Shown here: positions 15,646 to 60,112 of the stretch, piece after piece
Position numbering within the stretch: the first letter of the stretch is position 1
How the letters are laid out: every line of letters starts with the position of its first letter
Source: Candidatus Woesearchaeota archaeon
GTDB lineage: Archaea > Nanobdellota > Nanobdellia > Woesearchaeales > ARS49
Assembly (NCBI GenBank): GCA_038891615.1
Contig: JAWADY010000002.1
Coordinates: forward strand, 64,994-128,993
Length of the DNA stretch: 64,000 nucleotides
Reading direction: 5' to 3'
Program-made: the position numbers and the translations under genes
Notes under the pieces: model-generated
The model's input: the letters and a program-made list of their open reading frames with translations, nothing else
Databases searched by the model: none
What the model was told of the DNA's origin: nothing

Positions 15646-16071
15646 ATGGCAAAAAAAGGGGTAAGTGGAATACAGGTCGTCATAGCACTTTTGATTGGCA
15701 TCATAGTGCTCTATGTTGTTGTGGCTTTTATGCAAGCACAGTTCAAGAAGGCTGGAAAGAGTATCGAGGAAATAACTCCTTCCACAATCAGCTTTGCGCT
15801 GCAAGGCTGCAGGCTCCAAGCCGCACGAGGTTTTTCTGATGCAGATAAGGATGGATATCCCGACTTTTGTGATGTCTGCGAAGGCGGTGATGACGGAAAG
15901 CACAGCGATGCTGACTGGGTTCCAGATGATTGTGATGCGCATGAAAAAACAAAAGGGCTTCCTGCAAAGGAATGTGGTTGTGAAAAGCCAGAAATGGATT
16001 CTGAAGGCAGGCTGATAAAGAGCTGTGGGAGGCTTCTTTCAATCGAGCCATTTAAGTGCGCGAAAAAATGA
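15646..16071 (+). CDS. prepilin-like protein, 141 aa, with an acidic D-rich/Cys segment
   Basis: N-terminus is MAKKG/VSGIQVVIALLIGIIVLYVVVAF. The segment DADKDGYPDFCDVCEGGDDGKHSDADWVPDDCD looks like a Ca-binding site. Confidence 0.7.
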   Translation: MAKKGVSGIQVVIALLIGIIVLYVVVAFMQAQFKKAGKSIEEITPSTISFALQGCRLQAARGFSDADKDGYPDFCDVCEGGDDGKHSDADWVPDDCDAHEKTKGLPAKECGCEKPEMDSEGRLIKSCGRLLSIEPFKCAKK

Positions 16072-16088
16072 ATTTGGTAAAATGAAAA

Positions 16089-16949
16089 ATGAGCAAAAGG
16101 AAAGGCCAGGAAGAAGTTGGAAGGATGCTTTGGGAACTTGTTGCGCTGATACTGGCAGTAACTGTTATCATTGGAGGGATATTGTTTTTTGGAAGGGCAT
16201 TTGGATTTATTGGTGAGAGCAAAGAGGAACAGGACACAATCTCAAGCTTTTACAGCCTTGCAACAAAACTAAACGAACTGGCGCTGCTTTCAGAGTCATT
16301 CGTTCATGACAGGCTACCACTTTTTATTGGGGAAGGATTTGTAATTGTTGGCTTTGACAAAGCTGGAGATATTTCTGTCAATGGTTGCAGCGATGAAACA
16401 CATCTTGGAGTTCCAGCTACTGACCTCATCCCAAAGCCAGAGTTCTGTGGCGAGTTTGCTTGCATATGCCTCTATTCTGGCATTAGCGAAGAAGTCGGCG
16501 AGAAGCAGCCAATTTCTTGTGCCAAAATTTTCGCTGACAGATTGATTGGCTTGAGTAGTGCGTATCTTGAAAAAAACTATCCCTCTTTTGAGTCTTTTTG
16601 GAAAAACGCAATGGGCTCTCGTAGGGATAAGCCAGAACTACAAAGGTTCATGGTAACAGGGACAGAGCCTTTTAGCACTCTTCTCGAAAAAGACTATCCT
16701 CTTTTCCCAAGCTTTGAAAGCTACCCCTATACCTATTTTGTTCTTCATGGTGAGTGTGAAAACTGGTGGTTTGATGCCAACTTTGGCACACAAAGCCTCT
16801 ATCTTGAAAAAGTGAGGATAAAAGACAGGAACTATTTATTTATCACCGCAGACATCGAGGACTTTGTAAACAAAAGGGTTGCTGCAATAAAGGATTGGCT
16901 AGAGAAGCAAAAGAGTCAAGAGAAAGCCGAGGGAGGGCTGGTTGGTTGA
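16089..16949 (+). CDS. prepilin-like protein, 286 aa
   Basis: N-terminus is MSKRKGQ/EEVGRMLWELVALILAVTVIIGGILFF. Confidence 0.65.
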   Translation: MSKRKGQEEVGRMLWELVALILAVTVIIGGILFFGRAFGFIGESKEEQDTISSFYSLATKLNELALLSESFVHDRLPLFIGEGFVIVGFDKAGDISVNGCSDETHLGVPATDLIPKPEFCGEFACICLYSGISEEVGEKQPISCAKIFADRLIGLSSAYLEKNYPSFESFWKNAMGSRRDKPELQRFMVTGTEPFSTLLEKDYPLFPSFESYPYTYFVLHGECENWWFDANFGTQSLYLEKVRIKDRNYLFITADIEDFVNKRVAAIKDWLEKQKSQEKAEGGLVG

Positions 16950-17784
16950 AATGGTTGTGATTGGCAAGCGAGCCGTTGTTCATCCAGTTGCTCTGACAAT
17001 TGCAGAGCTTATTTTAGCCGCAATTATTGTCCTTGCAATGTACAATTTTGCCTCAAGGGCAAGAGAGCCTGGAAGGCTTGAAAAAGAGTTTGTTGCAAAA
17101 GACCTTGGCTTGCTGCTTGACGCCGTTTCCGTTGGCCAAGGGAGTTACTATTTGGTTTACACATCACCAGCCCTTCATCAAGATTTCAAGATTTCTGCAG
17201 GCGCCCACGAGGTTGTTGTTGATGGCTCAAGGCAGCCCTACGCATCTGGGCGTATAGAAATAAAAGGAGATTCCTTTGGAACAGATAAACTTGTGATCTG
17301 GTCTGAAACTGGAATTCTTGGCACGCCTTCAGCAGTCAAAGGTCACCTGCTACAGCTTCCTTGCGAAAGCCCACTGTCTTTTTCAACTGATAGGCAGCTT
17401 GCGGTAGCTGCTGATGATGGTGCCAAACAACTTGTTGAAAGACTTTTTGTCAAGGACTTAGGGAAAAGGCTGTTGTCAAATGATGAGAAAGGCGCAAGTG
17501 CGCTATTAAAAATTTTCACAGGAACAAAAAATGGGACAGCGAAGGCATATTTTTGGAAGGATGATAAGTCAGCAAGGTCGCTTGCATGCGCCCTTTTGAA
17601 CAGCATTGTCGCTTTTGAAGGAACCAATTCAGCCCTTCTTCTTCCGCTTAATCCTGAGCTTGCACCAAAGCGTTTTGCAGAGCTTGAGAAACAAAAGCCA
17701 GCTGTCTTCCTCGAGCTAGGCCCAGACCTTATTTCAAGCCCTGAACTTGCTCAGGCACTTTATGGTGGTGTTCGAAGTGGCTGA
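16942..17784 (+). CDS. prepilin-like protein, ~277-280 aa
   Basis: N-terminus is (MVE)MVVIGKRA/VVHPVALTIAELILAAIIVLAM. The track start is TTG at 16942; the ATG at 16951 lies 1 nt after the upstream TGA. Confidence 0.6.
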   Translation: MVEMVVIGKRAVVHPVALTIAELILAAIIVLAMYNFASRAREPGRLEKEFVAKDLGLLLDAVSVGQGSYYLVYTSPALHQDFKISAGAHEVVVDGSRQPYASGRIEIKGDSFGTDKLVIWSETGILGTPSAVKGHLLQLPCESPLSFSTDRQLAVAADDGAKQLVERLFVKDLGKRLLSNDEKGASALLKIFTGTKNGTAKAYFWKDDKSARSLACALLNSIVAFEGTNSALLLPLNPELAPKRFAELEKQKPAVFLELGPDLISSPELAQALYGGVRSG

Positions 17785-18325
17785 AAGGCAACAAGCAAAC
17801 ATTTTTAGCAAAAAGGCTCAACTCCTTAGCCATCACACAAAATTTCTTTTCATAAGCCTTCCATTTGTTATTATCTCCGCTCTTGCGTTGTTTCTTCTCG
17901 CAAACAGGTTTCTTGAAATAAGAGTAAATACCTTTCCCCTCGAGGCAAACGCATTTGTTGAAAGCATACTCTACTCATCTGCTGGGCTGGCTTATGTTGA
18001 CAATGTAACCGGGATTACCTATTCTGGAATCATAGACATCACAAAACTTGAAGAAAAGGACATTGGAAAAAGGTTGTCTAAGGCTTTTAACTATGGTGAA
18101 GGGCAAAGTTACCTTGCAGCAAAGCTTCTGATTGGTGATAGGACAATTTTCTATAACAACGAACCAGAAGCACCTTGGTATGACCGCTGGAAACCAAAGG
18201 TTGGGCTCAAGGGTGCTGGCGGAGTGCAATCGGTTACTTTTGTTAAATATGTGCTCATCAAAAATGGAAGTATGTTAGAACCTGCAACCGTTTACATAGA
18301 GTTGCTCAAGCCTGGTGAGGGCTAA
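17747..18325 (+). CDS. prepilin-like protein, ~180-192 aa (start uncertain)
   Basis: N-terminus is ...IFSKKAQ/LLSHHTKFLFISLPFVIISALALFLLA. Candidate starts are 17747, ATG 17762 and GTG 17777, and all overlap the upstream gene end (17784). Confidence 0.55.
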   Translation: MLRHFMVVFEVAERQQANIFSKKAQLLSHHTKFLFISLPFVIISALALFLLANRFLEIRVNTFPLEANAFVESILYSSAGLAYVDNVTGITYSGIIDITKLEEKDIGKRLSKAFNYGEGQSYLAAKLLIGDRTIFYNNEPEAPWYDRWKPKVGLKGAGGVQSVTFVKYVLIKNGSMLEPATVYIELLKPGEG

Positions 18326-18900
18326 TGGTAATAAATGGAAGAAAAGGCGTTGTTGGGGAGCTATTAGTTGCATTTCTCTCTTTTGCAGGCCTTGCTCTTA
18401 CAATCCTACTCTTCACTTTCATATTCTCTCCAGCAGACTTTCCTGGTCCTCAAACTTTGACCGTGCTTAATGAAGGAGAAACAGATGGCAAACTTAGACT
18501 GCTGACCATTCTTCGCTCACCAGTTGTTTTTGATGGGGAGAAAATAGATTTTGCAGACATGATTGCACTTTGGCAAGGAAAGCAAGAGCCGCTCGAAAGC
18601 ATTCTTCACTCAGAGCTTGAAAAGCTGCTTAATAACAAGCTAAGTTATGAGTTCGAGCATGCTGGTGTCAAATTTGTGCGCACTTATGCTTTTGCCATTT
18701 ATAGCATAAAAGACGATTTAAGTCGTGGCAAAGAACTAATGAAAGTAGAGGCAAGCGGCTATTCAGGAGGTAAAGAAATAGCCTCAACTCATGTTGCATT
18801 AAAGGATGGCAATGTGCTTGAGGTTGTGCTATTTTCAAGCGCGCAAAAAAAGCCATCCAAAACTCCTGTTTCGAGCGCTTCATCCATACCTATAAAATAA
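18325..18900 (+). CDS. prepilin-like protein, 191 aa
   Basis: N-terminus is MVINGRKG/VVGELLVAFLSFAGLALTILLFTFIF. There is a TAATG start/stop overlap at 18323-18327. Confidence 0.65.
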   Translation: MVINGRKGVVGELLVAFLSFAGLALTILLFTFIFSPADFPGPQTLTVLNEGETDGKLRLLTILRSPVVFDGEKIDFADMIALWQGKQEPLESILHSELEKLLNNKLSYEFEHAGVKFVRTYAFAIYSIKDDLSRGKELMKVEASGYSGGKEIASTHVALKDGNVLEVVLFSSAQKKPSKTPVSSASSIPIK

Positions 18901-18901
18901 A

Positions 18902-19870
18902 ATGGTCAAATCAAACAAACGCGCAACAATCTTTTTTGAACCACTAATACTTTTGGGGTTAATCGTTGCTCTTAGCATCGCAGCTATTTCTGTTAGCCAA
19001 AAAAGGTCCTCTTTTGGAACAATTGGCAGACCAGCTGCTGACCTTCTTAATTACAATGACTTTGGTGAAGAACTTCTTTTTAAGGTTGAACAAGCAGCGA
19101 GGTTTGCAGTTCGCGATGCGCTTTATGAGTTGGGTGCAAATGGTTGGAGTGCTGAAGGTCCAAACTTAGGTTGTGATAGCCAGCCAATTGGCAAGCCTTT
19201 GCTTATCGAGAGCTTTCCTACACCACAGGAGATTGTTGAAGAACTAACAAAAATTTCTGATAGGAAGCTTAGGGCTTATTCGCTCAGGGCTTCGCAGCTC
19301 CTTGGTCTTGGGAGGTTGGGCTTCCACTTGCCAACAGGTATTGAATATGAGTGGTTTGTTGAGCACTCTGGTGGGCTGTTGAGAGTGAGTGGCATTGCTG
19401 ACAAGCCAGTTACCTTCTCATTTAGCTCATACGAGGTAGGTAAACCAACACTCTACGGCCAGCCGCTGCCACTGCCAACTGCTTCAGTTGTTTTTATTCC
19501 TCTTGAACGTCCAAAACAGCCAGAAGCCCTGCTCTTGCTTTATGGCAATTATTCGATAAGGCCGTCCTTCACAGTCTGGATAGATTACGACCTTTTCGGC
19601 GTCTATGAAAGAATAAAAGAAGGCGTTGAGCAACTCAAAACAATCATTCAGGAAAACAGGGCTCTTGGTTTTGAGGTGACAGACCTGGCGCTCAAAAACA
19701 AAGTCAAGGAGCTGAATTCTGCGCAGGGAGAGCTTGTTTGGCAAGTCCCTAAGAGGACAAGTGAAGATCCGGCTATCTACTCTTTTGTTATTTCTCATAA
19801 GAAGCAGCTTTTAGGATGCAGTCAGCCTATTCAAATAAGGTTTGCGATGAGAATTCCATTAGCTGCTTGA
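18902..19870 (+). CDS. prepilin-like protein, 322 aa; last gene of the operon
   Basis: N-terminus is MVKSNKRA/TIFFEPLILLGLIVALSIAAISV. The start lies 1 nt after the upstream stop. Confidence 0.65.
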   Translation: MVKSNKRATIFFEPLILLGLIVALSIAAISVSQKRSSFGTIGRPAADLLNYNDFGEELLFKVEQAARFAVRDALYELGANGWSAEGPNLGCDSQPIGKPLLIESFPTPQEIVEELTKISDRKLRAYSLRASQLLGLGRLGFHLPTGIEYEWFVEHSGGLLRVSGIADKPVTFSFSSYEVGKPTLYGQPLPLPTASVVFIPLERPKQPEALLLLYGNYSIRPSFTVWIDYDLFGVYERIKEGVEQLKTIIQENRALGFEVTDLALKNKVKELNSAQGELVWQVPKRTSEDPAIYSFVISHKKQLLGCSQPIQIRFAMRIPLAA

Positions 19871-22754: not shown

Positions 22755-23099
22755 ATGTACGGAAATTTTGGTGGGAGAGATTTCCGACCAAGAGGGGGCA
22801 TTGCTCCCATAAAGGTTGGAGAAGAGCTTGATGTAACCATCGAAGCTGTTGGAGAGAAAGGGGATGGCATAGCCAAAAAAAATGGCTTTGTCATCTTTGT
22901 GCCAAACACAAAGCAAGGCCAAAAAGTCCGCATACGAGTGACAAAAGTCCTTGCAAAGGTCGGTTTTGCAGAGGTCGTTGAAGCAGCCAAGGAAGCCCCT
23001 GCCCCAGCAGCTGAGCCAGCTGTTGAAGAGGTTGCTGAAGAAGCTCCTAGCTCTCCAGAAGACACTGAGACCTTTGGTGAAGAAGAGACAGAGGAATAG
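22755..23099 (+). CDS. TRAM-domain protein with an acidic C-terminal tail
   Basis: The segment GEELDVTIEAVGEKGDGIAKKNGFVIFVPNTKQGQKVRIRVTKVLAKVGFAEVV matches the TRAM beta-barrel pattern. Confidence 0.8.
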   Translation: MYGNFGGRDFRPRGGIAPIKVGEELDVTIEAVGEKGDGIAKKNGFVIFVPNTKQGQKVRIRVTKVLAKVGFAEVVEAAKEAPAPAAEPAVEEVAEEAPSSPEDTETFGEEETEE

Positions 23100-23156: not shown

Positions 23157-23705
23157 ATGAGACTTTTTGTAGCAGTTGGTTTGCCGAAGGAGGTAAGTGA
23201 GCACTTGCACGAGCTCGCAGTGGCGCTTGCTTCTGAGCCTTCTGCTAAGGTTGCCCTTGCCGCTGGAAGCCATCTAACATTAAAATTTCTTGGAGAGCAA
23301 CCAGAAGAGAAGCTAGAAGAAATAAAGAGCCTGCTTTCTGAAATTAGTTTTGAGCCATTCGAGGGAGCGCTCAATGGTATTGGATGGTTTCCTGGAGGAA
23401 AAAGGATGCGTGTTATCTGGATTGGGATAAAACCAGAAGAAGCATTTTCTAAACTTCAACAAAAGGTGGAAAGCTCGCTTAAAAGCTTTGGCAAGGCAGA
23501 AGAAAGAGCCTTTTCTCCTCACATCACTTTGGCAAGAGTGAAGGCTATTTTTGACAAGGCTGCCTTTGCAAAAGCTGTTACAGAGCTCGGCAAGAGAGTG
23601 AAACAGCTTCGCTTTGTAGTTACCAGCTTTAGCCTTATGAAATCGACTCTAACCAAAAAAGGGGCTGTTTACGAGGAGTTGGCTAAATTTGTTGCAAAGG
23701 CTTGA
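23157..23705 (+). CDS. thpR: RNA 2',3'-cyclic phosphodiesterase / 2'-5' RNA ligase (2H phosphoesterase, LigT/ThpR family)
   Basis: Two H-x-T-x motifs are present: HLTLKFLG and HITLARV. Confidence 0.88.
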   Translation: MRLFVAVGLPKEVSEHLHELAVALASEPSAKVALAAGSHLTLKFLGEQPEEKLEEIKSLLSEISFEPFEGALNGIGWFPGGKRMRVIWIGIKPEEAFSKLQQKVESSLKSFGKAEERAFSPHITLARVKAIFDKAAFAKAVTELGKRVKQLRFVVTSFSLMKSTLTKKGAVYEELAKFVAKA

Positions 23706-38190: not shown

Positions 38191-38264
38191 GGGGCAGTAA
38201 CTCAGCCCGGGAGAGTGCACGGCTGAAGACCGTGGTGTCGCCGGTTCAAATCCGGCCTGCCCCA
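38191..38264 (+). tRNA. tRNA-Phe (GAA)
   Basis: The hand-folded cloverleaf is GGGGCAG/TA/GCTC..GAGT region/CACGG-CTGAAGA-CCGTG/GTGTC/GCCGG-TTCAAAT-CCGGC/CTGCCCC-A. CCA is not encoded. Confidence 0.9.
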
Positions 38265-40482: not shown

Positions 40483-42753
40483 TTATCCAATCGCGAATTC
40501 CTTTTTAATACTCCTCTTGAGCCACTCATTCCATTCGAAAAATATTCTTTCTGTATCAAGCCTTCCAACTTCCTCAAGTATCTTATCCGAGATGTTGTGG
40601 AAGGCATCATTTGCAGTTATAACAAACTTTGCCTCAAGAATGTCTGGTCTTTTGAGAGCTCTGGCTGTCTCAACCAGCGTTTCTTTGATTCTTGCTCTTA
40701 AGTTTATGTTCTCCCACACTGCATCCCAGTTGCCAGCCCATTCTTTTACATTTGAAGCAATTGCCTTTAGCACATCGCTGTCGCCAGCAAGAAGGTCTTG
40801 TGTTGGCTGCAGCGTGTCTGTGCGCACATCGTATCTCATCAAATCAACGAAACCTTTCTCTGCAAGAGGGTCTTCTTCCCAAAACTTTCTTACTTCTGTG
40901 ATTTGGGTTATCCTTCTCCACCTATGCAGGCCATCTGGACTTCTTATCGGATTTGCCACAACAATGAGATCTGTCGCCTTAAAGGATGTTCTTGGAACAC
41001 CAAGGTCATTAACAACTCTATCAAAGACACCGTACGGGCTGTCGCCGTGAATCGTTCCAGCAACGACATTTGCGAGGGCACCAACTCTCATTGCTTCGTA
41101 GAGCGCGCGAGCCTCAACAGACCTTACTTCTCCTATGATAAGGCTGCTGTCTCCCAGCCTAAGTGTTGTACGCAAGCCTTCTTCTGCAGGCACTTCTGTT
41201 GTTCCACGGGTCAATGCGCTGGCTACCTTCATAGATTGAATGTTGTAGCCAAGCTCGCGCAGAGAGCTAACTGGTAACTCAAGTGTATCTTCTATGGTCA
41301 ATACTCTTATCCTGCGCATTATCTCTGTCATAAGCGATGCCAGAAAAGATGTTTTTCCTGCAGATCTTGTACCTGCGATTAGCATTGTTCGCGCGCCATC
41401 GATGCAAAAGCTCAGAATGCCTGCGCCAAGAGGGCTAATCATTCTGTTTTCTATGAAAAGTGGAAGAGTCCATGGCTTGTCGCGATGCCTCCTGAAGCTA
41501 TACGCAATACCTGTTGGGTTCAATGGAGCTGTTATTGCCGCAATCCTTGCACGCGCTCTTGGTATAATAAGTTCTGTATCAAGAATTGGATTTGCCTCAT
41601 CAAAAGGCCTATTCGAGAGAAGTCTCAGCTTTGAGGCCCAGCTTTCAGCCTCGCTTGCTGTTGGCACAATGTTTGTCATGCAGTCAGCATAATCAGCCTG
41701 TACAACAAATATTGGAATCCTGCCCATGGGACTGTTAACCGAGATATCCTGTATTTTTTCATCCTGAAGAAGAACTTCAACAAGTCCAAAGCCAACTGTG
41801 TACCTCACTAGGATGTTTGCAAGCTCCTGCAGTTCTTTTTCTCGAAGTTTCAGGCCGCGATACTCCGCAAGTTCCTCAAGAAGGTCAGAACCAATCCGCT
41901 CAAAAACCTGCCTCATACGCTCCGGGTCTACGAACTCTGAGCGTTTTGGCTTGTGTTCTACGATAATATTTCTCGCAGAATCAAGGAGCTCATACTTCTC
42001 CTCACTAAGCTTGAATTCTGGAGGAATAATATGATAAAGGTATTGTACCGTGTTCGGTAGGGAAAAGATGTTGACTTCTGTTCCATTTACAATGTAGCTC
42101 TCAAGCAGCTCTGCATCCGGCGGAAAGCTTGACATTAGTTTGGTAAACATAAAGTCTGGCTTTATTGTCGGCGAAAATATTCTTCTATAAATGTCCCTCT
42201 CGCCAACCTTGTATCCTGCTAATTGCTCTTTTGCAAGCTTGATGAGTGTTGTTTGTTGGAGTAAGCCAAGTGCGTCCTCCACTGCCTTAAGATAGCGCTG
42301 CAGGCACCTCTGGCCTTCGGGAGAGGCATGCTTAAGATATTCTCTTTCTCGTCTTGCAATGCGCTCCAGCTCAACATAAGCTCCCACAGGATCGCTTTTT
42401 AGCATTGTATGTAGGATTGACTGCAGCTCTGTGTATCTCCTTGTTAACCATTTCAAGCACGTCATATCAGATAAGAAGCCATACGCCAATCTTCTGCGTA
42501 GCAGCTCCTTGTACGCAATTGCTATCTCATTAAGTATTGCTGTTTGAGTGCCATCATATTCATAATCGCGCTTTTGCACAAAAACAATTCTTGTAACTGT
42601 GCCAACCTCTGCAAGAATGTCAATTGTCATTGACATTGTTTTTGGAGAATCTTCAATTGAGGGAAAAAATGTGCAGGCCTCTGCATCTATTCTAAGAATT
42701 ATCTCCTCACCTTCTCTTATAATCTCGTAGCTGAAACAACCTCTATCAGGCAT
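40483..42753 (-). CDS. FlaI/PilB/VirB11-family type IV filament assembly ATPase with an enlarged N-terminal region (~756 aa)
   Basis: Motifs are Walker A IAGTRSAGKTSFL, Walker B/Asp box RVLTIEDTLEL and His box VAGTIHGDSP. The start is set to the ATG at 42753, preceded by GAGGTGGGAGG; the track start at 42780 is a TTG. Confidence 0.85.
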   Translation of the reverse strand: MPDRGCFSYEIIREGEEIILRIDAEACTFFPSIEDSPKTMSMTIDILAEVGTVTRIVFVQKRDYEYDGTQTAILNEIAIAYKELLRRRLAYGFLSDMTCLKWLTRRYTELQSILHTMLKSDPVGAYVELERIARREREYLKHASPEGQRCLQRYLKAVEDALGLLQQTTLIKLAKEQLAGYKVGERDIYRRIFSPTIKPDFMFTKLMSSFPPDAELLESYIVNGTEVNIFSLPNTVQYLYHIIPPEFKLSEEKYELLDSARNIIVEHKPKRSEFVDPERMRQVFERIGSDLLEELAEYRGLKLREKELQELANILVRYTVGFGLVEVLLQDEKIQDISVNSPMGRIPIFVVQADYADCMTNIVPTASEAESWASKLRLLSNRPFDEANPILDTELIIPRARARIAAITAPLNPTGIAYSFRRHRDKPWTLPLFIENRMISPLGAGILSFCIDGARTMLIAGTRSAGKTSFLASLMTEIMRRIRVLTIEDTLELPVSSLRELGYNIQSMKVASALTRGTTEVPAEEGLRTTLRLGDSSLIIGEVRSVEARALYEAMRVGALANVVAGTIHGDSPYGVFDRVVNDLGVPRTSFKATDLIVVANPIRSPDGLHRWRRITQITEVRKFWEEDPLAEKGFVDLMRYDVRTDTLQPTQDLLAGDSDVLKAIASNVKEWAGNWDAVWENINLRARIKETLVETARALKRPDILEAKFVITANDAFHNISDKILEEVGRLDTERIFFEWNEWLKRSIKKEFAIG

Positions 42754-42867
42754 GTGAAGTCCTCCCACCTCTTTGAGCAAAGGTTTTTAGCACTTTGACA
42801 TGGTTACACAATTTATTATCCTGCTAAGCAAAACCTTATTAAAGCAAATTTATAAGCTTTTGCAAAA

Positions 42868-50074: not shown

Positions 50075-51385
50075 CTATGGGCTTTTTCTAAGCATTGTTC
50101 GTGGAAAGGGTATTGCATCTTTTATGTTGTCAAGTCCACAAATCCACGATATGACGCGCTCGATGCCCATCCCAAATCCAGAATGTGGAACAGAGCCATA
50201 GCGTCTTGTGTCAAAATACCATTCGTAATGTTCTGGATGTTCGCCGCTCTTTTTTAGCGCTTCTTTCATTGCATTGATGTCAAGGTCTCGTTGCGAGCCT
50301 CCAATTATCTCGCCGTACCCTTCAGGCGCGAGCATGTCAAAACAGAGTGCCGTCTTAGGATCTCTTGGGTCTGCTGGCTTATAAAATGCCATTATCTCCT
50401 TTGGATAGTTCGTTACGATGAGAGGCCTGTCAAAATGCTTCATTATTTTGTTCTCTTCAATTGTCCTCAAGTCCTTGCCCCACTGCACTACCAATCCTTC
50501 TTTTTTCTTCAAAAGCTCAAGGACTTGTGTATATGTAAGCCTAGGAAAAGGTGTTTTTACCTTTTTGAGCTTCGACAGTTCTTGCCCAAGCTGTGTTAGT
50601 TCTGAGCTGTTTTCCTTTAACACAGCCTTTACAACGTGCTCAACGAGCTCTTCGGCTTGTTTAATAGCTCCGTCCAAGTCCTGCCACGCTGTTTCGACCT
50701 CTGCCATCCAGAACTCTGCAAGGTGTCTCGAGGTTTTGCTCCGTTCTGCTCTAAAGCATGGACTAATTGTGAATATCTTTTCAAGTCCAAAAATTCCTGC
50801 CTCTGCATAAAGCTGCCAACTTTGAGTAAGGTATGCAATGTCGTCAAAGTATTTTAGCTGGAAAAGGGTTGCTCCCCCTTCGCAAGCAACTGGGGTTATT
50901 ATAGGTGGAGACCATTCGTAGTAGCCTCGCTCATAGAAATAATCTCGTACCGCCTTGAGGATGGTTGAGCGAATCTTAAGGATGTTTGTTAGCTTTCTAC
51001 TTCTTAACCAAAGATGCCTCACATCGAGGAGAAACTCCTGACTAAGATCCTTTGCTATTGGGAATCTCTCTGCAATATGAACAATTTTCAGGTCTGAAAC
51101 TTTTAGCTCGTATCCTGTTGGAGCCCTTTCATCTTTTACAAGCTCGCCCTCAACAATAAGCGAGCTTTCCATTGTTACCTTTTCCGCATTACTGAATAAC
51201 TCCTTTGGCACATTTTCTTTCTTGACAACACATTGTATGATGTTGGAGCTATCTCTTAAAACAATAAACACTTTGTCCGCAAACTTCCTTTCGCGATAGC
51301 ACCAGCCTCTAAGCCTAACCTTTCCTTTACCTTTTTCAAGTGCTTCTTGTATCGAAATAATGCCGTCTTTTTCAGCTACTGCCAT
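50075..51385 (-). CDS. asnS: asparaginyl-tRNA synthetase
   Basis: A class IIb core is present, with FRAERSKTSRHLAEFWMAEVETAW (AsnRS-type motif 2 region) and GFGMGIERV (motif 3). Confidence 0.85.
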   Translation of the reverse strand: MAVAEKDGIISIQEALEKGKGKVRLRGWCYRERKFADKVFIVLRDSSNIIQCVVKKENVPKELFSNAEKVTMESSLIVEGELVKDERAPTGYELKVSDLKIVHIAERFPIAKDLSQEFLLDVRHLWLRSRKLTNILKIRSTILKAVRDYFYERGYYEWSPPIITPVACEGGATLFQLKYFDDIAYLTQSWQLYAEAGIFGLEKIFTISPCFRAERSKTSRHLAEFWMAEVETAWQDLDGAIKQAEELVEHVVKAVLKENSSELTQLGQELSKLKKVKTPFPRLTYTQVLELLKKKEGLVVQWGKDLRTIEENKIMKHFDRPLIVTNYPKEIMAFYKPADPRDPKTALCFDMLAPEGYGEIIGGSQRDLDINAMKEALKKSGEHPEHYEWYFDTRRYGSVPHSGFGMGIERVISWICGLDNIKDAIPFPRTMLRKSP

Positions 51386-51431: not shown

Positions 51432-52739
51432 TCAGGGCACAACTCGTTCTGGGTCCCTTGGAAATAGCACTCCTTCTCGGATGTTTCCAAGCCCAAGTAT
51501 GTTTTTTACAAGTCTGTCAATGCCAAGCCCGAAACCGCCATGTGGAGGCATGCCATAGCGGAATGCTTCTAGATAAAATGCAAAATCCTTCGGGTCTAGC
51601 CCTTTACCTTTCATCTGCTCAACAAGCTGGATGTAGCGATGTTCGCGTTGCCCTCCTGAAGCAAGCTCCTCTCCACCATACTCGAAGTCAAAGCTCCGTG
51701 ACAGTCCATTCTCTGCCATTATGTAGAAAGGTTTTATCTTGAATGGAAACTTTGTGATAAAGTACGCCTTTGTGCCGTACCTTTTTTTCACAAGTTCTCC
51801 CAAAAGCTTTTCGTCTTCTGCCCCTATGTCCTCGTCTTCTTTTATCTTTGAGCCAGCTTCCTTGAGCATGTCCAAGGCTTCGCTGTACCTTATCCTTGGA
51901 AATGGAAGCTGAGGAGGCTCCAAGTGAATATCAAAAAGGCCCAGCTCACGCGCGAATTCAGATTTTATTTTTCCAATAACAAAAACAAACAACCTTTCAA
52001 GAAGTCTTAGCACATCCTCTTCATCTTTTATGAATGCCATTTCGAGGTCAAAATGCGTGAACTCTGTGAGATGTCTCGTTGTATGCGATTTTTCTGCCCT
52101 AAAGCTTGGCCCTATCTCAAAGACCTTGTCAAAGCCCGAAGCAAGCACAGCCTGTTTGTACAGCTGCTGGCTTTGACTCAGAAAAACTTTTTTGCCATAG
52201 TAATTTACTTGGAAAAGGGTTGCTCCTCCCTCTGCCCCTGCACTTATGAGTTTTGGCGTTTGTATTTCAATAAAACCCTCTGAGTTAAGGAAAGCGCGGA
52301 TTGCAGCATTTAGTCCTGAACGTATTTTAAAAATTGCCAGGTTTTTTCGGTTTCTTAGATCAAGTAGTCTGTTGTCAAGCCTTTTGTCAAGGCCAGTAGG
52401 AATCTTCCCGGAGAAGTCGATTGGAAGCACTGGTTCGCTTTTACTTATTACCTCAAACTTTTCAAGAACAAGCTCTTTTTCTCCAGATTTGAGCTTTGAC
52501 TCAGCCATTTTCCCCTCTGCAACGATTACAGATTCCTTTGGGATCTTTTCAAGCTCAGACATTTTTTCAAAATCTGGAAGAGCTGTTAGCTGAATCTCCC
52601 CTTCCCTATCACGGAGCCTGACAAAAGCAATCTTTCCAATGCGTTTTATGTCAGCCGCCCACCCTGCTACTACAACTCGTGTTCCAGCAGCCTTTTTCAG
52701 CGCCTCGCTTGAATAAATCCTTCTTGCTAGATCTATCAT
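51432..52739 (-). CDS. aspS: aspartyl-tRNA synthetase (archaeal type)
   Basis: Motifs are FRAEKSHTTRHLTEFTHFDLEMAF and GFGLGIDRL, preceded by an N-terminal OB fold. Confidence 0.85.
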   Translation of the reverse strand: MIDLARRIYSSEALKKAAGTRVVVAGWAADIKRIGKIAFVRLRDREGEIQLTALPDFEKMSELEKIPKESVIVAEGKMAESKLKSGEKELVLEKFEVISKSEPVLPIDFSGKIPTGLDKRLDNRLLDLRNRKNLAIFKIRSGLNAAIRAFLNSEGFIEIQTPKLISAGAEGGATLFQVNYYGKKVFLSQSQQLYKQAVLASGFDKVFEIGPSFRAEKSHTTRHLTEFTHFDLEMAFIKDEEDVLRLLERLFVFVIGKIKSEFARELGLFDIHLEPPQLPFPRIRYSEALDMLKEAGSKIKEDEDIGAEDEKLLGELVKKRYGTKAYFITKFPFKIKPFYIMAENGLSRSFDFEYGGEELASGGQREHRYIQLVEQMKGKGLDPKDFAFYLEAFRYGMPPHGGFGLGIDRLVKNILGLGNIREGVLFPRDPERVVP

Positions 52740-53374
52740 TTTTTCCGTCCTCTGCTTCTGCCTTTGAGCCTGAGCTTCAATGCAAGGTCTTCAAGTTTTT
52801 CCAGCCCATATTTCAGGCTATCAAACTTTTTTCTTAAAGGTTGGTTTCTAAAATCAAATAGGGTCAGTTGTTCATGAATCCCTTCAACAAATGCCTTTAT
52901 CTCAAGCGCAGACCTTTCATTGCCTTTTATCACAGAATTTATGGCTTTTCGCACAAGCTCGCCCACCATATCACAAAGTCCTAGAAGATATATATCTATG
53001 TCAACGCCAAGTTCTTTGGGAGAGAAAAGTCGCTTCTCACTCGCCCAGCCATAGTAGCAGGAAGCCTCAACATACTCTTCCAGAGCCTCTGCATAAGCAC
53101 CAATCATTGCAAGATGTTTGTCACCCTTTACAAGGCTTTCTGCCTCTTTTATTCTGCTTTTTGCAACCCTTAGTGCAGCTGCTGCCGAAGCGAGGTCTTC
53201 TCTATGAAGTGCATAAATTGCCTTTTTGCTTTCCTTTAGAATATCTCTTGATTTCTTTATAAGCTCTTCGCGGGCATAATCAAAAGCCTCTAGCTTCTGC
53301 CTCATGAGCTCAAAAGTCTTTTTGTCAATCATTACTGTAGTTTGTGAGCGCAGCCCTTTTAAATCTATTGCCAC
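52736..53374 (-). CDS. translin-family nucleic-acid-binding protein
   Basis: This helical protein carries YLLGLCDMVGELVRKA (the translin signature region). The start is GTG, and the stop overlaps the aspS start by 4 nt. Confidence 0.75.
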   Translation of the reverse strand: MAIDLKGLRSQTTVMIDKKTFELMRQKLEAFDYAREELIKKSRDILKESKKAIYALHREDLASAAAALRVAKSRIKEAESLVKGDKHLAMIGAYAEALEEYVEASCYYGWASEKRLFSPKELGVDIDIYLLGLCDMVGELVRKAINSVIKGNERSALEIKAFVEGIHEQLTLFDFRNQPLRKKFDSLKYGLEKLEDLALKLRLKGRSRGRKK

Positions 53375-53399
53375 GCACTGCTCTGAAACAAAGAAAAGG

Positions 53400-53407
53400 T
53401 TTATATA
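53400..53407. promoter_or_regulatory. TATA box (TTTATATA), possibly bidirectional (translin gene leftward, six-gene operon rightward)
   Basis: It lies 26-33 nt from the GTG at 53374 on the minus strand and 45-52 nt upstream of the ATG at 53452. AGAGAGGT at 53433-53440 is a candidate SD site. Confidence 0.45.
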
Positions 53408-53451
53408 CTCTCATTCTTCAAAAAAGCAAAAAAGAGAGGTTAAAAAACCTG

Positions 53452-54003
53452 ATGGCCGCGACTGTTCTTGGAAATGTCATTGAGTTTTTTAATAGAATAG
53501 GAATTTACGATGTCGTGCTACCCTTTCTTCTCGTTTTCACAATTGTTTTTGCAATCTTTGAGAGAACAAAGGTTCTTGGAACAGAAAAGATTGATGGGGA
53601 AGTTGTTACAAAAAAGAACCTTAATGCAATGGCTGCCTTTGTAATTGCATTTTTTGTAGTAGCTTCAGGCCAGGTTGTGGAGACAATCACAAAGGTTTCT
53701 GCAAACATGGTTGTTCTTCTCTTTCTTGTGATATTCTTCCTAATGCTTGTTGGCACACTTTACAAAGAAGGAGAATTTGTTGAAAAGGGACTTGAAGGCT
53801 GGCCAAGAAATGTCTTTATTATAGTTCTTACCCTTGGAATCATTCTTGTTTTCCTAGACGGAATAAAAGCAGCTGACGGTCGGAGTTGGTTACAGGTTGC
53901 AACAGATTACCTTCAGCTGAACTGGTCCTCACCTGCTGTTGCCTCAGTAGTGCTCATCCTTCTCGTCATATTCATAATAAACTGGCTAACAAAGGGTAAG
54001 TAG
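53452..54003 (+). CDS. polytopic membrane protein, paralog M1 of an unrecognised family
   Basis: It has 4-5 TMs. The N-terminal motif is IGIYDVVLPFLLVFTIVFAIFERTKVLG. The start is set to the ATG after the SD site. Confidence 0.7.
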   Translation: MAATVLGNVIEFFNRIGIYDVVLPFLLVFTIVFAIFERTKVLGTEKIDGEVVTKKNLNAMAAFVIAFFVVASGQVVETITKVSANMVVLLFLVIFFLMLVGTLYKEGEFVEKGLEGWPRNVFIIVLTLGIILVFLDGIKAADGRSWLQVATDYLQLNWSSPAVASVVLILLVIFIINWLTKGK

Positions 54004-54579
54004 GTGATGCAAATGATTTTTCGGCTTCAATTTGGGCCTTATGGCATAGGTTTTAGGGACCTTTTTTATAGACTGCAGGTTTTGGGCGTGTTTGATGTTC
54101 TGATACCTTTTGTTCTAATCTTCACCATTCTTTATGCAGTCCTTCAGAAAGTAGGAGTGTTCAAAGAGAAGAAGTTCAATATTCTCATCTCGCTTGCAAT
54201 AGCTCTTCTCGTAGTTGTCCCTCATGTTGTTGGAGGCTATCCTGCTGGCTTTGATGTAGTTGAAATCATAAACCGCTCGCTCCCGCAAATAGCCTTCCTC
54301 CTCATAGCTTTTGTTCTTTTTCTCATAATGGTTGGGCTTGTCTGGAAGCCACAGAAGGGAACGGAACTTGTGTTTCAAGGGGCTCTTGTTCCAATCATTG
54401 TTGCGCTTATTCTCTTTTTCATCTTTAGCAGTGCGATTTATCAGCAAGCCATTCCGAACTGGCTTTGGTGGATTCTTGATCCAACCTTGCAGATGTTCGT
54501 TGTGATTTTGCTGATATTCGGGCTTGTTGTGTGGTTTGTGACAAGCGGAGCAAAGGAAGAAAAAGAGGGAAAAGATTAA
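54004..54579 (+). CDS. polytopic membrane protein, paralog M2
   Basis: The motif is LGVFDVLIPFVLIFTILYAVLQKVGVF. Candidate starts are GTG 54004, ATG 54007 and ATG 54013. Confidence 0.7.
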   Translation: MMQMIFRLQFGPYGIGFRDLFYRLQVLGVFDVLIPFVLIFTILYAVLQKVGVFKEKKFNILISLAIALLVVVPHVVGGYPAGFDVVEIINRSLPQIAFLLIAFVLFLIMVGLVWKPQKGTELVFQGALVPIIVALILFFIFSSAIYQQAIPNWLWWILDPTLQMFVVILLIFGLVVWFVTSGAKEEKEGKD

Positions 54580-54594
54580 AAGAGCTAGTGAAAT

Positions 54595-55158
54595 ATGGCA
54601 ACCCTGCTTGACCTAGGCCTTGTGAGAACTTTTGACGCCCTGTTTCCTTTCCTTTTTGTCTTTGTTGTTGTTTATGGCGTCCTAAGCTACACAAAACTTC
54701 TTGGCGAGAACAAAAGTGTACATGCAATAATTGCATTTATACTTGCCATAGCCGCCCTATTCTCCCGCATTGCTCTAAAGACAATAACCCTCATGGCCCC
54801 ATGGTTCGTTATTCTTTTTGTTTTCGCGATATTTGCAATAATGACTTATCAGCTCTTTGGTGTTAAAGAGGAAGAGATATCTGGACTTTGGAAAAAGTGG
54901 ACAGCTGGTGGTAGCACCATCTTCTATTGGTTATTGGCACTCATACTTATGATAGGACTTGGCTCGTTGTTCACTGTCCTGCGCGAAGAAAGGGCACCAC
55001 CTTTTTTCATCCAAAATGCCACTGTTACTCCAGGCATTCCAGAAGCCCGGATTAGCTTTTGGTCAACAGTATTCCATCCAAAAGTTCTTGGAGCCGCACT
55101 TCTTTTCTTGATAGCATTGTTCGCCATAAAGAGCCTCACAGAGCTTCCAAAGAAATAA
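54595..55158 (+). CDS. polytopic membrane protein, paralog M3
   Basis: The motif is VRTFDALFPFLFVFVVVYGVLSYTKLLG. Confidence 0.7.
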   Translation: MATLLDLGLVRTFDALFPFLFVFVVVYGVLSYTKLLGENKSVHAIIAFILAIAALFSRIALKTITLMAPWFVILFVFAIFAIMTYQLFGVKEEEISGLWKKWTAGGSTIFYWLLALILMIGLGSLFTVLREERAPPFFIQNATVTPGIPEARISFWSTVFHPKVLGAALLFLIALFAIKSLTELPKK

Positions 55159-55167
55159 CCTTAAATT

Positions 55168-55779
55168 GTGAAAATGGTAGAAATAATAGATCGGTATTCT
55201 CGTTTTGGCAAAAATCTCTTAAAAATCACAAGTTTTGTATTGGGCTACAAGGATGTTTTTTCTTTAGAAAAACTAATCACTCTTATTCACGAGTGGCTCG
55301 TTGAGGAAGGCTATGCAACACGGGATGATGAGAAGTTTGGTGAGGTGTTTTATTTGCAAAAGGACAACCCTGTTGCAGGCAATGAGTACTGGATTCGTTG
55401 GAGGCTTGAGAAAACCCCCTTTCAAACAAAGCTTTGGAAATATCTTCTTGATATCGATATACACGTTCTTGGATTAAAAAAAGTTGAGCTTGTTGCCGGA
55501 GGGAAAAAGCTTGAAGCAGATAAGGGAAAGGTTGAGATTGCTGCAGACTTTGGCTTACTTCTTGACCCACAAAATTTGCTTGAGGCTCCGGTTATTAAAC
55601 CATTTAAAATGCTTGTGCTAAAGGGCTTTCTTAAGGCGCAGTTTTCAAAGCACAAAGAAGCAGTCTTCACTGATGCTCAAAGGCTTCAAGATATGTTAAA
55701 ATCCTATCTCCGTCTTGAGACCTACTTGACTGAAAAAGGGCTTCCGGAATTCCTTGGCAAAAGGCCGGAGGCAAGATAA
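55168..55779 (+). CDS. soluble hypothetical protein, paralog S1 of an unrecognised family
   Basis: Shared pattern: ...LITLIHEWLVEEGY...YWIRWRLEK...LDIDIHVLGLKKVELV...GKVEIAADFGLLLD... Confidence 0.65.
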   Translation: MKMVEIIDRYSRFGKNLLKITSFVLGYKDVFSLEKLITLIHEWLVEEGYATRDDEKFGEVFYLQKDNPVAGNEYWIRWRLEKTPFQTKLWKYLLDIDIHVLGLKKVELVAGGKKLEADKGKVEIAADFGLLLDPQNLLEAPVIKPFKMLVLKGFLKAQFSKHKEAVFTDAQRLQDMLKSYLRLETYLTEKGLPEFLGKRPEAR

Positions 55780-56280
55780 ATGGTAGTGAAGATAGACATA
55801 CCAGTTTCAATTATACGCTATGCTGGGCTTTTTCAAAAGGAAAAACTGCTTAGAACAGTTCGTGGCTGGCTTCTTTCAGAGCGCTATCTCTTTAGTGAGC
55901 CAAAGCATAAGTACAGCAGCTCTCCAACTGGTGCAACATTAGAGGTGCGGTTTGAAGGCGATAGAAAGGTAACAAGCTATGTGCGCTTCAAAATTGTTGT
56001 AGATATTCTGATTAATGAAATGAAGGATGTACAAGTTGTCAAGGATGGCATTCAAACAGTCCTTCAAGAAGGAAAAATACTTATCGAAACAAAGGGCACT
56101 TTGGAATTGGATTGGCAAAATCGTTTTGGAGGTTCAAAATTTCTTCAGGGCTTACACGACTTTTATCTAAAGTACATAATAAAGAAAAAAATTGATGAAG
56201 TATGGTGGGGAGCTCTTTATTCCAAAATATTTAAATTGAACTCAGTCATTAGAGAAGCAATAGGCTTTGAAACAGTCTGA
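55780..56280 (+). CDS. soluble hypothetical protein, paralog S2
   Basis: Shared pattern: ...LLRTVRGWLLSERY...EPKHKY...LEVRFEGDRKVTSYVRFKIVVDILINEMKDVQVV...GKILIETKGTLELDWQNRF... The start abuts the S1 stop. Confidence 0.65.
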   Translation: MVVKIDIPVSIIRYAGLFQKEKLLRTVRGWLLSERYLFSEPKHKYSSSPTGATLEVRFEGDRKVTSYVRFKIVVDILINEMKDVQVVKDGIQTVLQEGKILIETKGTLELDWQNRFGGSKFLQGLHDFYLKYIIKKKIDEVWWGALYSKIFKLNSVIREAIGFETV

Positions 56281-56290
56281 GGTCGCTCTG

Positions 56291-56806
56291 ATGCCAGAAC
56301 GCGAGACAATTGTTGACAAAGAACGGTTAGAGTATGAAGGACCATTTGAGCTTTCTGCTTTTTATCAGCTTCTCCAGAGCACAATTGCTGAGCTTGGTTA
56401 TGGCGTAAGGGAAAGAAAGCATTCCGAAGCGGTTTCGAAGGAAGGAAAGCTAATCTATCTTGAGCTAGAGTGTAGAAAGGTGCTATCAGAGGACTATGCT
56501 AGAGCTCTTATTCTGCTAAATGTTCAGCTTATAAATGTCAAAGACATCGTTGTTGAGGGCAAAAAATATCAGACAGGAAAGATTAGCATTGTTCTTGATG
56601 GCATCCTTGAAACAGACTATGAAGGAAGATGGGAGGAAAAGCCGCTTCTTCTCTTTCTCAGGACTCTTTATGACAAATTTATTTTTAAAACAATAACTGG
56701 TGGATACGATAGAATAATCCGAGAAGATGCAAATAGGCTGAAAGACATTGTCAGTGCATTCTTTAACATTTCTGCCTTTAGGGTGCCTCAACGTGCCTCT
56801 GCCTAA
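56291..56806 (+). CDS. soluble hypothetical protein, paralog S3
   Basis: Shared pattern: ...LLQSTIAELGY...ERKHSE...LELECRKVLSEDYARALILLNVQLINVKDIVV...GKISIVLDGILETDYEGRW... The ATG at 56291 is preceded by GAGGT; the track start at 56267 is a TTG. Confidence 0.65.
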   Translation: MPERETIVDKERLEYEGPFELSAFYQLLQSTIAELGYGVRERKHSEAVSKEGKLIYLELECRKVLSEDYARALILLNVQLINVKDIVVEGKKYQTGKISIVLDGILETDYEGRWEEKPLLLFLRTLYDKFIFKTITGGYDRIIREDANRLKDIVSAFFNISAFRVPQRASA

Positions 56807-56875: not shown

Positions 56876-56959
56876 GCCTCCGTAGCTCAGTAGTGGAGCG
56901 ACTGCCTTGTATCTGTGCAAGAAAGCAGTAGGTCAGGGGTGCGAATCCCCTCGGAGGCT
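56876..56959 (+). tRNA. tRNA-Thr (UGU) with a 12-nt intron at the canonical 37/38 position
   Basis: The acceptor is GCCTCCG/CGGAGGC and the anticodon stem is ACTGC/GCAGT. The loop reads C-U-UGU-A, followed by the intron TCTGTGCAAGAA (56912-56923). CTTG of the loop pairs with CAAG of the intron and leaves a 3-nt AAA bulge (relaxed bulge-helix-bulge). The T-loop reads TGCGAAT. Confidence 0.8.
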
Positions 56960-58294: not shown

Positions 58295-58930
58295 ATGAAA
58301 ATAATCTTGTTCGGTCCACAAGGCTCTGGAAAAGGAACGCAGGGCAGACTCCTTAGTCAAGCTTTTGGTATTCCACATATTGATGTTGGAGAGCTTTTGC
58401 GCAAGGAACTTGAAAAGGGAACAGAGCTTGGCATGCGGGCAAAGAAAGTTCTTGAGCATGGAGGCTTTGTAGAGGATGGTGAGATTTTCAAACTTGTGAA
58501 GTCAAAGCTGTTAAGCAGCGAGTCCGAAAAAGGGTGGATTCTTGATGGTTTTCCAAGGACGCTAGAACAGGCAGACTTTCTTGAACAGGTTGCAAAACCT
58601 GATATTGCTATACTTTTGAAGATTCCTGACCGTATTGCAATCAAAAGACTTTCCAGCAGAAGACAATGCCCAAAGTGCGGAAGGGTATACGGCTTAGATA
58701 TTCCCCCAAAAAAGCGAGGGAGGTGTGATGAGTGCGGGGAAAGACTTCTTAGGCGCAAGGATGACAGTCCTGCAGCAATAAGAAAGCGGCTTAGACTTTA
58801 TCACAAAGTTACAGAACCAATACTTAGGCGTTACAAGAAGCAAAGGCTTGTTTACGAAGTTGATGCCTCAGGGGCTATTGAAGAAGTTTTTAAGGAGCTT
58901 TGTTCTGTTGTTAGAGAGTTCTCTGAGTAA
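58295..58930 (+). CDS. adk: adenylate kinase (long, bacterial-type, with a Zn-binding lid)
   Basis: The P-loop is GPQGSGKGT. The lid is CPKCGRVY...CDECG. Confidence 0.92.
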   Translation: MKIILFGPQGSGKGTQGRLLSQAFGIPHIDVGELLRKELEKGTELGMRAKKVLEHGGFVEDGEIFKLVKSKLLSSESEKGWILDGFPRTLEQADFLEQVAKPDIAILLKIPDRIAIKRLSSRRQCPKCGRVYGLDIPPKKRGRCDECGERLLRRKDDSPAAIRKRLRLYHKVTEPILRRYKKQRLVYEVDASGAIEEVFKELCSVVREFSE

Positions 58931-59927: not shown

Positions 59928-60032
59928 CGCGCCCGGGAGGATTTGAACCCCCGATCTCCAGGTTAGGAACCTGTCGCTCTATTTGTCCGAGCAGAAAAGT
60001 GCTTTCTGCCCACCAGACTGAGCTACGGGCGC
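59928..60032 (-). tRNA. tRNA-Arg (CCU) with a 31-nt non-canonical intron in the D-loop
   Basis: Read from the reverse complement. The acceptor is GCGCCCG/CGGGCGC. The D arm is GCTC-AGTCTGGT[31-nt insert]A-GAGC. The anticodon arm is (A)CAGG-TTCCTAA-CCTG(G), and the T arm is GGGGG-TTCAAAT-CCTCC. The insert (plus-strand 59981-60011) contains a 7-bp hairpin, GCAGAAA/TTTCTGC. Confidence 0.75.
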
Positions 60033-60112
60033 ATTGAAAGGAAAGCTCTTTTAGTGTTTTTAAATATTCTCACCAGCTGTCAGTGCCTTCTTAGCCCTTG
60101 CCAAATAGCTGC

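Follow-up and report, generated by a model that had tools for sequence, protein, structure and literature searches.

Archaeal splicing motifs consist of two 3-nucleotide (nt) bulges separated by a helix of 4 base pairs (bp), and such bulge-helix-bulge (BHB) motifs also occur in D-loops (Hirata 2019, PMC6379350). The intron positions described in archaeal tRNAs include 20/21, 22/23 and others, and the mechanism by which BHB introns are gained and spread has been stated to be unknown (Yoshihisa 2014, PMC4090602). Two D-loop introns are the closest described cases: that of Methanopyrus kandleri tRNA-Glu(UUC), located at 20b/21 with a relaxed HBh' motif (central helix H, bulge B, outer helix h'), and that of Aeropyrum pernix tRNA-Thr(UGU) (PMC5829648; Hirata et al. 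2011, PMC3241643). The pre-tRNAs of both species were cleaved experimentally (PMC5829648), and unidentified disrupted tRNA genes were predicted in metagenome-assembled genomes (MAGs) of DPANN archaea, including a Woesearchaeota genome (Kaneta et al. 2018, PMC5829648). Here we describe a 64,000-nt stretch of contig JAWADY010000002.1 (hereafter the window) from a DPANN archaeon labelled Candidatus Woesearchaeota. It contains what is very probably a functional tRNA-Arg(CCU) gene with a 30-nt archaeal BHB intron in its D-loop, between G19 and A20.

The tRNA-Arg(CCU) gene and its D-loop intron

The gene and its intron occupy 59928-60032 on the minus strand, a position between gatE and truD in which relatives carry intron-less orthologues. 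Read as a precursor from 60032 to 59928, the gene is 105 nt long, does not encode CCA and has the layout GCGCCCG UA GCUC AGUCUGG ↓ UGGGCAGAAAGCACUUUUCUGCUCGGACAA ↓ AUA GAGC G ACAGG UUCCUAA CCUGG AGAUC GGGGG UUCAAAU CCUCC CGGGCGC G, where arrows mark the exon-intron boundaries. The perfect 7-bp acceptor stem (GCGCCCG/CGGGCGC) with discriminator G, the T arm (GGGGG-UUCAAAU-CCUCC) and the 7-nt anticodon loop UUCCUAA, with the anticodon CCU at 59965-59967 (placed by ARAGORN and by coordinates), can all be read directly, as an initial sequence-only reading of this locus had noted. That reading also took the anticodon arm for a perfect stem, which it is not: a purine-purine mismatch, A27.G43 (window positions 59973 and 59957), lies at the top of the stem. 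The mismatch is G27.A43 in loci L010 and L012, and it is kept in intron-bearing and intron-less orthologues alike. The halves of the D stem, GCUC and GAGC, are split apart by the insert, in agreement with the interrupted D arm proposed earlier, and ARAGORN calls tRNA-Arg(CCT) on the intron-removed sequence.

A T-rich trailer follows the discriminator base. The gap between gatE and the tRNA is 80 nt in the window, and a TATA-box-like element, TTTAAAAA (60057-60064, minus strand), lies 24 nt upstream of tRNA position 1. This putative promoter aligns, at identical spacing, with TTTAAATA upstream of the L010 orthologue and upstream of an orphan tRNA fragment in L025.

The prediction that standard tRNA finders would miss or mis-score the gene was borne out for ARAGORN and for the Rfam tRNA model. 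In its default mode, which allows no introns, ARAGORN found only tRNA-Phe(GAA) at 38191-38264 in the whole window, and with the -i option it mis-called the Arg locus as tRNA-Leu(TAA). Rfam at the gathering threshold reported the tRNA-Phe and a tRNA at 56876-56959 and left out the Arg locus, to which RF00005 gave a partial 27.8-bit match in E-value mode (threshold 29 bits). This match treats GCUC-GGACAAAUA-GAGC as the D arm; we rejected it as an artefact because the 3' end of the intron, from which the pseudo D-arm is drawn, resembles a D arm. No second copy or fragment of tRNA-Arg(CCU) was found in the window, and a search for other hidden or split tRNAs in the window and its flanks, by a T-loop motif scan and Rfam in E-value mode, returned only the tRNA-Phe, a tRNA-Thr and the Arg gene.

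All registers of the Arg precursor were scanned for a BHB, with the cleavage rule added to the motif definition that each cut follows the second base of a bulge. This rule recovers the canonical 37/38 intron in the tRNA-Thr(UGU) of the window (56876-56959). Three candidates gave a valid tRNA, and only the best of them had a long h' together with some outer helix h. In this register, all of it on the minus strand, helix H is formed by the exon strand GUCU (G15-U17a; precursor 15-18, window 60015-60018) and the intron strand GGAC (precursor 45-48, window 59985-59988), as seen in the scan, in folding and in comparison. The bulges are GG↓U at the 5' splice site (60012-60014, cut after G19) and AA↓A at the 3' splice site (59982-59984, cut before A20). 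The cuts fall at precursor positions 20↓21 and 50↓51 and delimit a 5' exon GCGCCCGUAGCUCAGUCUGG (tRNA positions 1-19; 60013-60032), an intron of precursor nt 21-50 (59983-60012), and a 3' exon AUAGAGCG...CGGGCGCG that begins with A20 (tRNA positions 20-73; 59928-59982). The end of the 5' exon agrees with the alignment to the intron-less orthologue L010, and every collected tRNA-Arg(CCU) orthologue has A20.

With the intron removed at the predicted cuts, the gene gives a canonical cloverleaf, which ARAGORN accepts as tRNA-Arg(cct). The product is a 75-nt tRNA-Arg(CCU) with D-loop AGUCUGGAUA, including G18 G19 A20 U20a A21; it combines CCU in a 7-nt loop with A20 in the D-loop, and the chosen register is the sole valid candidate whose product matches the intron-less orthologues. 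A register with a 28-nt intron and a 77-nt tRNA was rejected, as it has no outer helix h and a D-loop absent from the orthologues. A 32-nt intron register that uses an intron-internal GCUC as D stem, as the partial Rfam match does, was rejected too, with outer helices of 1-2 bp and a D-loop lacking A14 and G18G19.

The 5' site is a textbook H-B-h' arrangement, its 3-nt bulge lying between H and the 9-bp intron hairpin h' found by folding (GGGCAGAAA/UUUCUGCUC, loop GCACU, 59989-60011); only the 3' site seems relaxed. There the bulge lies within a 5-nt strand, AAAUA, opposite A14, and the outer helix h would be a single A14-U20a pair, followed by a 1-nt bulge (A21) and the 4-bp D stem. In the nearest-neighbour model this pair costs +1.0 kcal/mol (-43.4 vs -44.4 kcal/mol), and without it the modelled 3' site is a 1x5 internal loop, i.e. 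a relaxed HBh'-type site. The two 3-nt bulges on opposite strands and the 4-bp helix between them are therefore present in strict form at the 3' side only with the A14-U20a pair. A strict hBHBh' motif, with both outer helices immediately next to the bulges, is cleavable by EndA of any type. The precursor folds at -46.8 kcal/mol (z = -4.4; 0 of 200 shuffles were as good), and a BHB-constrained fold is at most 0.3 kcal/mol from the unconstrained minimum free energy. The minimal geometry, H of 4 bp and h' of at least 3 bp at the junction, was recreated by 377 of 200,000 intron shuffles (0.19%). By eye, the intron shows no box C/D motif that would point to a guide-RNA role.

Comparison with relatives places the junction independently of folding. 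The gene order gatE-tRNA-Arg(CCU)-truD-adk is kept in relatives, of which the nearest have TruD proteins at most 54% identical to that of the window. L010 (TruD 54% identical) has an intron-less gene at 1196-1270, GCACCCGUAGCUCAGUCUGGAUAGAGCGGCAGGUUCCUAACCUGAAGAUCGGGGGUUCAAAUCCUCCCGGGUGCG, with D-loop AGUCUGGAUA and 63.3 bits in the Rfam tRNA model, where intron-less orthologues score 63-64 bits. The D-loops of the intron-less L100 and L101 are AGCUUGGAUA and AGCUUGGACA; together with L003, L061 and about 20 other archaeal loci, these genes are intron-less with a D-loop that is nearly always AGYYUGGAUA. A metagenome scan for tRNA-Arg(CCU) gave at least 80 loci, most of them bacterial.

Introns at the same junction were found in two further lineages. 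L012, L013 and L025 represent one lineage, with a TruD 82% identical to that of L010 and a 39-nt intron in the context GUCUGG↓AGGGCAUAAGCAAGCAAUCGCUUUGCUUGGCUCGGACAA↓AUAGAGCGG; when the L012 exons are joined at the predicted cuts, they are identical to the L010 tRNA at 75 of 75 positions. L021, from the metagenome scan (TruD 36% identical), has a 44-nt intron at G19/A20. Both introns form the GUCU/GGAC helix with bulges GG↓A and AA↓A, as in the window except for the first intron base, which is A in these lineages and U in the window. The exon strand of H is invariant in all three lineages. The hairpins differ: that of L021 is UACCGG/CCGGUA, and that of L012 has its first four pairs (GGGC/GCUC) in common with the window. 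The window intron is homologous to that of L012, with which it shares 5' GGGCA and 3' GCUCGGACAA. The motif is kept while the interior of the intron varies (30, 39 and 44 nt), in three lineages only and hence with weak statistics. We regard the predicted junction G19↓A20 as fixed, because three independent lines agree on it: the BHB ruler, the orthologues that lack the intron, and the separate lineages that carry one. The patchy distribution of the intron implies that it was gained, lost or transferred recently.

A second D-loop intron position was seen in the same tRNA species. In another archaeal lineage, which also came from the metagenome scan, L016 (1413-1533) and L024 (3425-3545, both on the matched strand) encode a tRNA-Arg(CCU) with a 46-nt BHB intron located 3 bases further 5' in the D-loop (AGCU↓...↓UGGAUA), with H = UCAG/CUGA and an 11-bp hairpin.

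Predicted splicing, alternative explanations and genomic context

In the precursor, the D-loop bases G15-U17a would pair with the GGAC near the intron 3' end to form the 4-bp central helix. The outer helices would be the 9-bp hairpin of the intron itself on one side and, on the other, the D stem with the possible A14-U20a pair. The splicing endonuclease EndA would cut each bulge behind its second base and produce a 2',3'-cyclic phosphate and a 5'-OH end, as is established for archaeal tRNA splicing, and an RtcB-type ligase would join the exons into the 75-nt tRNA. The contacts of G18 and G19 with the T-loop, and recognition of A20 by arginyl-tRNA synthetase (ArgRS), would form only after splicing. 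We take A20 to be a classical arginine identity element, as for the ArgRS of E. coli and T. thermophilus. The gene, the geometry of its fold, the junction and its conservation are as described above; we infer EndA cleavage, ligation, expression from the TATA-like box and any biological role of the intron. Geometry and comparison also support the earlier suggestion of a protein-spliced, BHB-type intron at a non-canonical D-loop position.

The gene could instead be decaying and non-functional, the insert being an unremoved scar, for example of mobile-element activity, with AGG read by another tRNA. Relatives do show such activity at this tRNA gene, in the form of an orphan fragment and a LAGLIDADG gene, and tRNA-Arg(UCU) could in principle read AGG. 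However, both exons are intact and near-identical to functional-looking orthologues, the BHB is kept in three lineages despite divergent insert length and sequence, the promoter-like box and synteny are conserved, and the window holds no other copy or remnant of the gene. We consider decay very unlikely.

Different boundaries were proposed in the sequence-only reading: a 31-nt intron (59981-60011) at 20/21, a 5-bp helix GUCUG/CGGAC with 4-nt bulges GUGG and AAAU, a 7-bp hairpin, and a 74-nt tRNA with D-loop AGUCUGGUA. ARAGORN does accept this 74-nt product as tRNA-Arg(cct), its 9-nt D-loop looks canonical for archaeal tRNAs generally, and the fifth pair, G18-C, is possible. Its cuts, however, break the rule of 3-nt bulges set 4 bp apart and cleaved behind the second base, and the conformer is 2.3 kcal/mol less stable (-42.1 vs -44.4). 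The product would lack A20-U20a, present in every orthologue, and with it the presumed identity element. Applied to L012 and L021, these boundaries give GGA↓AGAGC, whereas those adopted here reproduce the intron-less L010 tRNA exactly. The older boundaries are accordingly highly improbable, and we replace them with a 30-nt intron (59983-60012) at G19/A20, the 4-bp helix GUCU/GGAC with bulges GG↓U and AA↓A, a 9-bp hairpin and a 75-nt product with D-loop AGUCUGGAUA.

Two further alternatives have a negligible probability: that the insert is a group I or II intron which splices itself, or that it stays in the mature tRNA as an enlarged D-arm. Group I introns are known in rRNA genes of Woesearchaeota and Pacearchaeota (PMC6125680), but 30 nt is far below the size of a ribozyme core, which takes hundreds of nt and is not found here, and a search at E <= 10 matched none of the Rfam intron families. 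In established tRNA architecture G18/G19 interact with the T-loop, and a 9-bp hairpin inserted at G19 would abolish this contact.

Several points weigh against a functional gene with a spliced BHB intron. In the model the 3' site is not a clean bulge, U20a and A21 intervening between AAA and the D stem. The anticodon stem has the purine-purine mismatch at 27:43, though the same mismatch is seen in the intron-less orthologue. Another intact tRNA-Arg(CCU) may lie outside the window. Splicing and expression are predicted from sequence. Finally, no EndA or RtcB gene was seen in 81 kb of contig.

The latter region is 73,681-154,775 of contig JAWACO010000001.1 (344 kb; MAG GCA_038896715.1, labelled Candidatus Woesearchaeota archaeon at NCBI), a contig whose TruD and GatE are identical to those of the window. 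None of its called genes has an EndA domain (PF01974 or PF02778) in the Pfam annotations. A tblastn search of the window and all loci with the Methanocaldococcus jannaschii EndA gave no match; this negative is weak because the query sequence was unverified. The host is not a Thermoproteales-type crenarchaeon. The genome is of DPANN type, with 43% G+C. Archaeal markers lie near the gene (GatD/GatE, TruD and RadA), and its neighbours include gatD, gatE, truD, adk, tmk, two class II aminoacyl-tRNA synthetase paralogues and radA. A heterotetrameric or epsilon2 endonuclease in this host is plausible. The subunit type cannot be read from the intron, because EndAs of the alpha4 type that have gained an L3 loop are reported from several DPANN lineages with disrupted tRNAs (Kaneta et al. 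2018, PMC5829648).

The tRNA-Thr(UGU) gene of the window (56876-56959, plus strand) carries a 12-nt intron at 37/38, with H = CUUG/CAAG and bulges UA↓U and AA↓A. Its motif has a proper 3' bulge and no outer helix h', and is bulge-helix-loop-like. ARAGORN missed this gene in default mode, and the Rfam alignment shows a 14-nt anticodon-loop insertion at the 12-nt intron. Its motif hints at a tolerant enzyme, though at position 37/38 it would not be decisive. At the corresponding site, the tRNA-Thr orthologue of L025 (5147-5259) contains 42 inserted nt.

Other genes of the window were noted in passing. A TRAM-domain gene (~22755-23099, plus strand) is followed by a gene of the LigT/2'-5' RNA ligase (2H phosphoesterase) family (~23157-23705, plus strand; Pfam), which could be relevant to the 2',3'-cyclic phosphate ends left by tRNA splicing. 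Two adjacent class II aminoacyl-tRNA synthetase paralogues (Asp/Lys/Asn-type, PF00152 with an OB anticodon-binding domain) are encoded at 50075-51385 and 51432-52739 on the minus strand, near gatD/gatE. The convergent truD (minus strand) and adk (plus strand) overlap at their 3' ends by ~79 nt (58852-58930), both in our own open reading frame (ORF) calls and in the deposited gene calls. Six consecutive ORFs of ~170-200 amino acids without a Pfam match lie at 53344-56806 (plus strand), between a translin-family gene and the tRNA-Thr. The stretches 875-6355 (plus), 13509-19870 (plus) and 40483-42780 (minus) hold a predicted 1826-amino-acid surface protein with weak Big_13/TSP3 matches, then many consecutive small ORFs that have hydrophobic N-termini and match nothing in Pfam and, further on, a T2SSE-type ATPase. 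Together these may form a pilus or surface-appendage locus.

A LAGLIDADG gene at tRNA-Arg(CCU) in relatives

In L025 (locus positions 1164-2318; JGI contig Ga0315289_10000002, from the same genome as L012, L013 and L078), a 336-amino-acid ORF (1204-2214) precedes the intron-bearing tRNA and overlaps it, nt 8-10 of the tRNA being the UAG stop codon of the ORF. Further upstream, behind the ancestral gatE end and a TATA box, lies an intact 26-nt copy of the 5' part of the spliced tRNA, GCACCCGUAGCUCAGUCUGGAUAGAG; this displaced original 5' exon retains the intron-less junction. L025 is colinear with L010 but for one insertion of ~1,080 nt, flanked by AUAGAG, which can be placed exactly at G19↓A20. 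Within it lie the LAGLIDADG gene, the 5' exon in a second copy, and the homologue of the window intron, 39 nt long; the tRNA exons equal those of L010. In a second locus, L103 (2938-4054, from GCA_053530895.1), a homologous ORF extends into a tRNA-Arg(CCU) that has no intron, and a degenerate fragment lies ahead of the ORF.

About 63 close members of this ORF family occur in MAGs of Pacearchaeota, Woesearchaeota and Nanoarchaeota. Two LAGLIDADG-type motifs, LLGDGW and FDTDG, are invariant in the alignment, and many members carry precomputed Pfam LAGLIDADG_3 or LAGLIDADG_2 matches. Distant relatives in Patescibacteria are annotated as homing endonucleases. The L025 ORF itself has a LAGLIDADG_2 match below the Pfam threshold, and it gave no matches in PDB or NCBIfam.

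In at least 55 of the 63 family members the C-terminal tail is the translated 5' end of a tRNA. Forty-seven tails read A-x-V-A-Q-(S/P/L/F)-G-stop (GCN CNN GUA GCU CAG YYU GGA UAG) or similar frame-1 variants, and eight are in frame 2, e.g. MHP-stop. Four tails read through the anticodon loop and encode CUCCUAA. The tRNA is tRNA-Arg(CCU) in all six decodable cases, i.e. these four tails and the two loci verified at the DNA level. The tails and loci suggest a homing-endonuclease cassette dedicated to tRNA-Arg(CCU), an association that a full-text literature search did not find. Nawrocki et al. (2018) report archaeal group I introns with LAGLIDADG genes from rRNA genes only.

In the L025 lineage the intron apparently arrived with the cassette, and at 5-6 nt from the cassette junction it could provide target-site immunity. 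There is a small chance, with the odds clearly against it, that the D-loop intron of the window belongs to, or derives from, a mobile unit whose driver is a LAGLIDADG endonuclease dedicated to tRNA-Arg(CCU) in Woesearchaeota and Pacearchaeota. The intron would split the endonuclease target and so confer immunity, as in collaborative homing, and the ORF-less intron of the window would be a remnant left after loss of the endonuclease gene, for example by recombination between the 20-nt repeats. By tblastn, no homologue of the L025 ORF was found in the window or in the loci flanking it on the contig, and the window intron has no LAGLIDADG ORF beside it. IMG/VR scans for the D-loop-intron pattern, the tRNA clade and the LAGLIDADG family returned only unrelated phage or bacterial tRNAs and distant endonucleases. 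We propose the link between cassette and window intron only tentatively, because the majority of alleles with the endonuclease seem to have no intron, and the window in turn lacks the endonuclease gene.

Significance and comparison with described introns

Neither ARAGORN nor the Rfam tRNA model detects the cognate tRNA of AGG in the window, and MAGs of this kind will look as if they had no CCU decoder; estimates of completeness and codon capacity for DPANN genomes are therefore biased. The decoder matters because AGG makes up 32% of the Arg codons in the long ORFs of the window, where it is the most used Arg codon. The catalogue of archaeal introns gains a conserved D-loop BHB intron (G19/A20) in DPANN, with intron-plus and intron-minus orthologues that locate the junction to the nucleotide. 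If true, movement as a mobile unit would be a concrete mechanism for the gain and spread of BHB introns. With an endonuclease gene and an intron in one insertion, the gain or movement of archaeal BHB introns could become experimentally testable.

In collaborative homing, a free-standing homing endonuclease is paired with an ORF-less intron, as for cyanophage psbA/F-CphI and phage Aeh1 mobE-nrdB, and LAGLIDADG genes also lie inside archaeal rRNA BHB introns (I-DmoI, I-PorI). L025 resembles collaborative homing in that one insertion, adjacent to the target gene or inside it, holds both a LAGLIDADG gene and an ORF-less D-loop intron. It differs in that the host gene is a tRNA, the intron is of the BHB type and the 5' exon is duplicated, and the window holds no endonuclease gene.

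D-loop BHB introns and disrupted tRNAs in DPANN have already been published, and the window intron is for that reason of a known type; an intron at 19/20 in a Woesearchaeota tRNA-Arg(CCU) was not found in the literature compared. As in the non-canonical introns of Thermoproteales and other Crenarchaeota and the disrupted tRNAs of DPANN (Nanoarchaeum, ARMAN-2, and Woesearchaeota and Pacearchaeota MAGs), the gene is missed by standard finders (PMC4090602, PMC3239211, Kaneta et al. 2018). In those systems the BHB is transplantable to positions that include 20/21, 22/23 and 25/26, and EndA variants that carry additional loops have been linked to it (Yoshihisa 2014, PMC4090602; Fujishima et al. 2011, PMC3239211).

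With the D-loop introns of M. kandleri and A. pernix, the window intron shares the predicted protein-spliced type, a central helix formed by exon D-loop bases with the intron, and one proper bulge flanked by H and h', with a second site that is relaxed in them and seems so here. Unlike them, it lies in a different tRNA species, in a different phylum (DPANN) and at a different position (G19/A20), and its two predicted cuts both fit the 4-bp/3-nt ruler if A14 and U20a pair. Compared with the canonical archaeal intron at 37/38, the same cleavage rule applies, as the tRNA-Thr(UGU) of the window shows, but the Arg intron is located elsewhere and its outer helix is the D stem rather than the anticodon stem.

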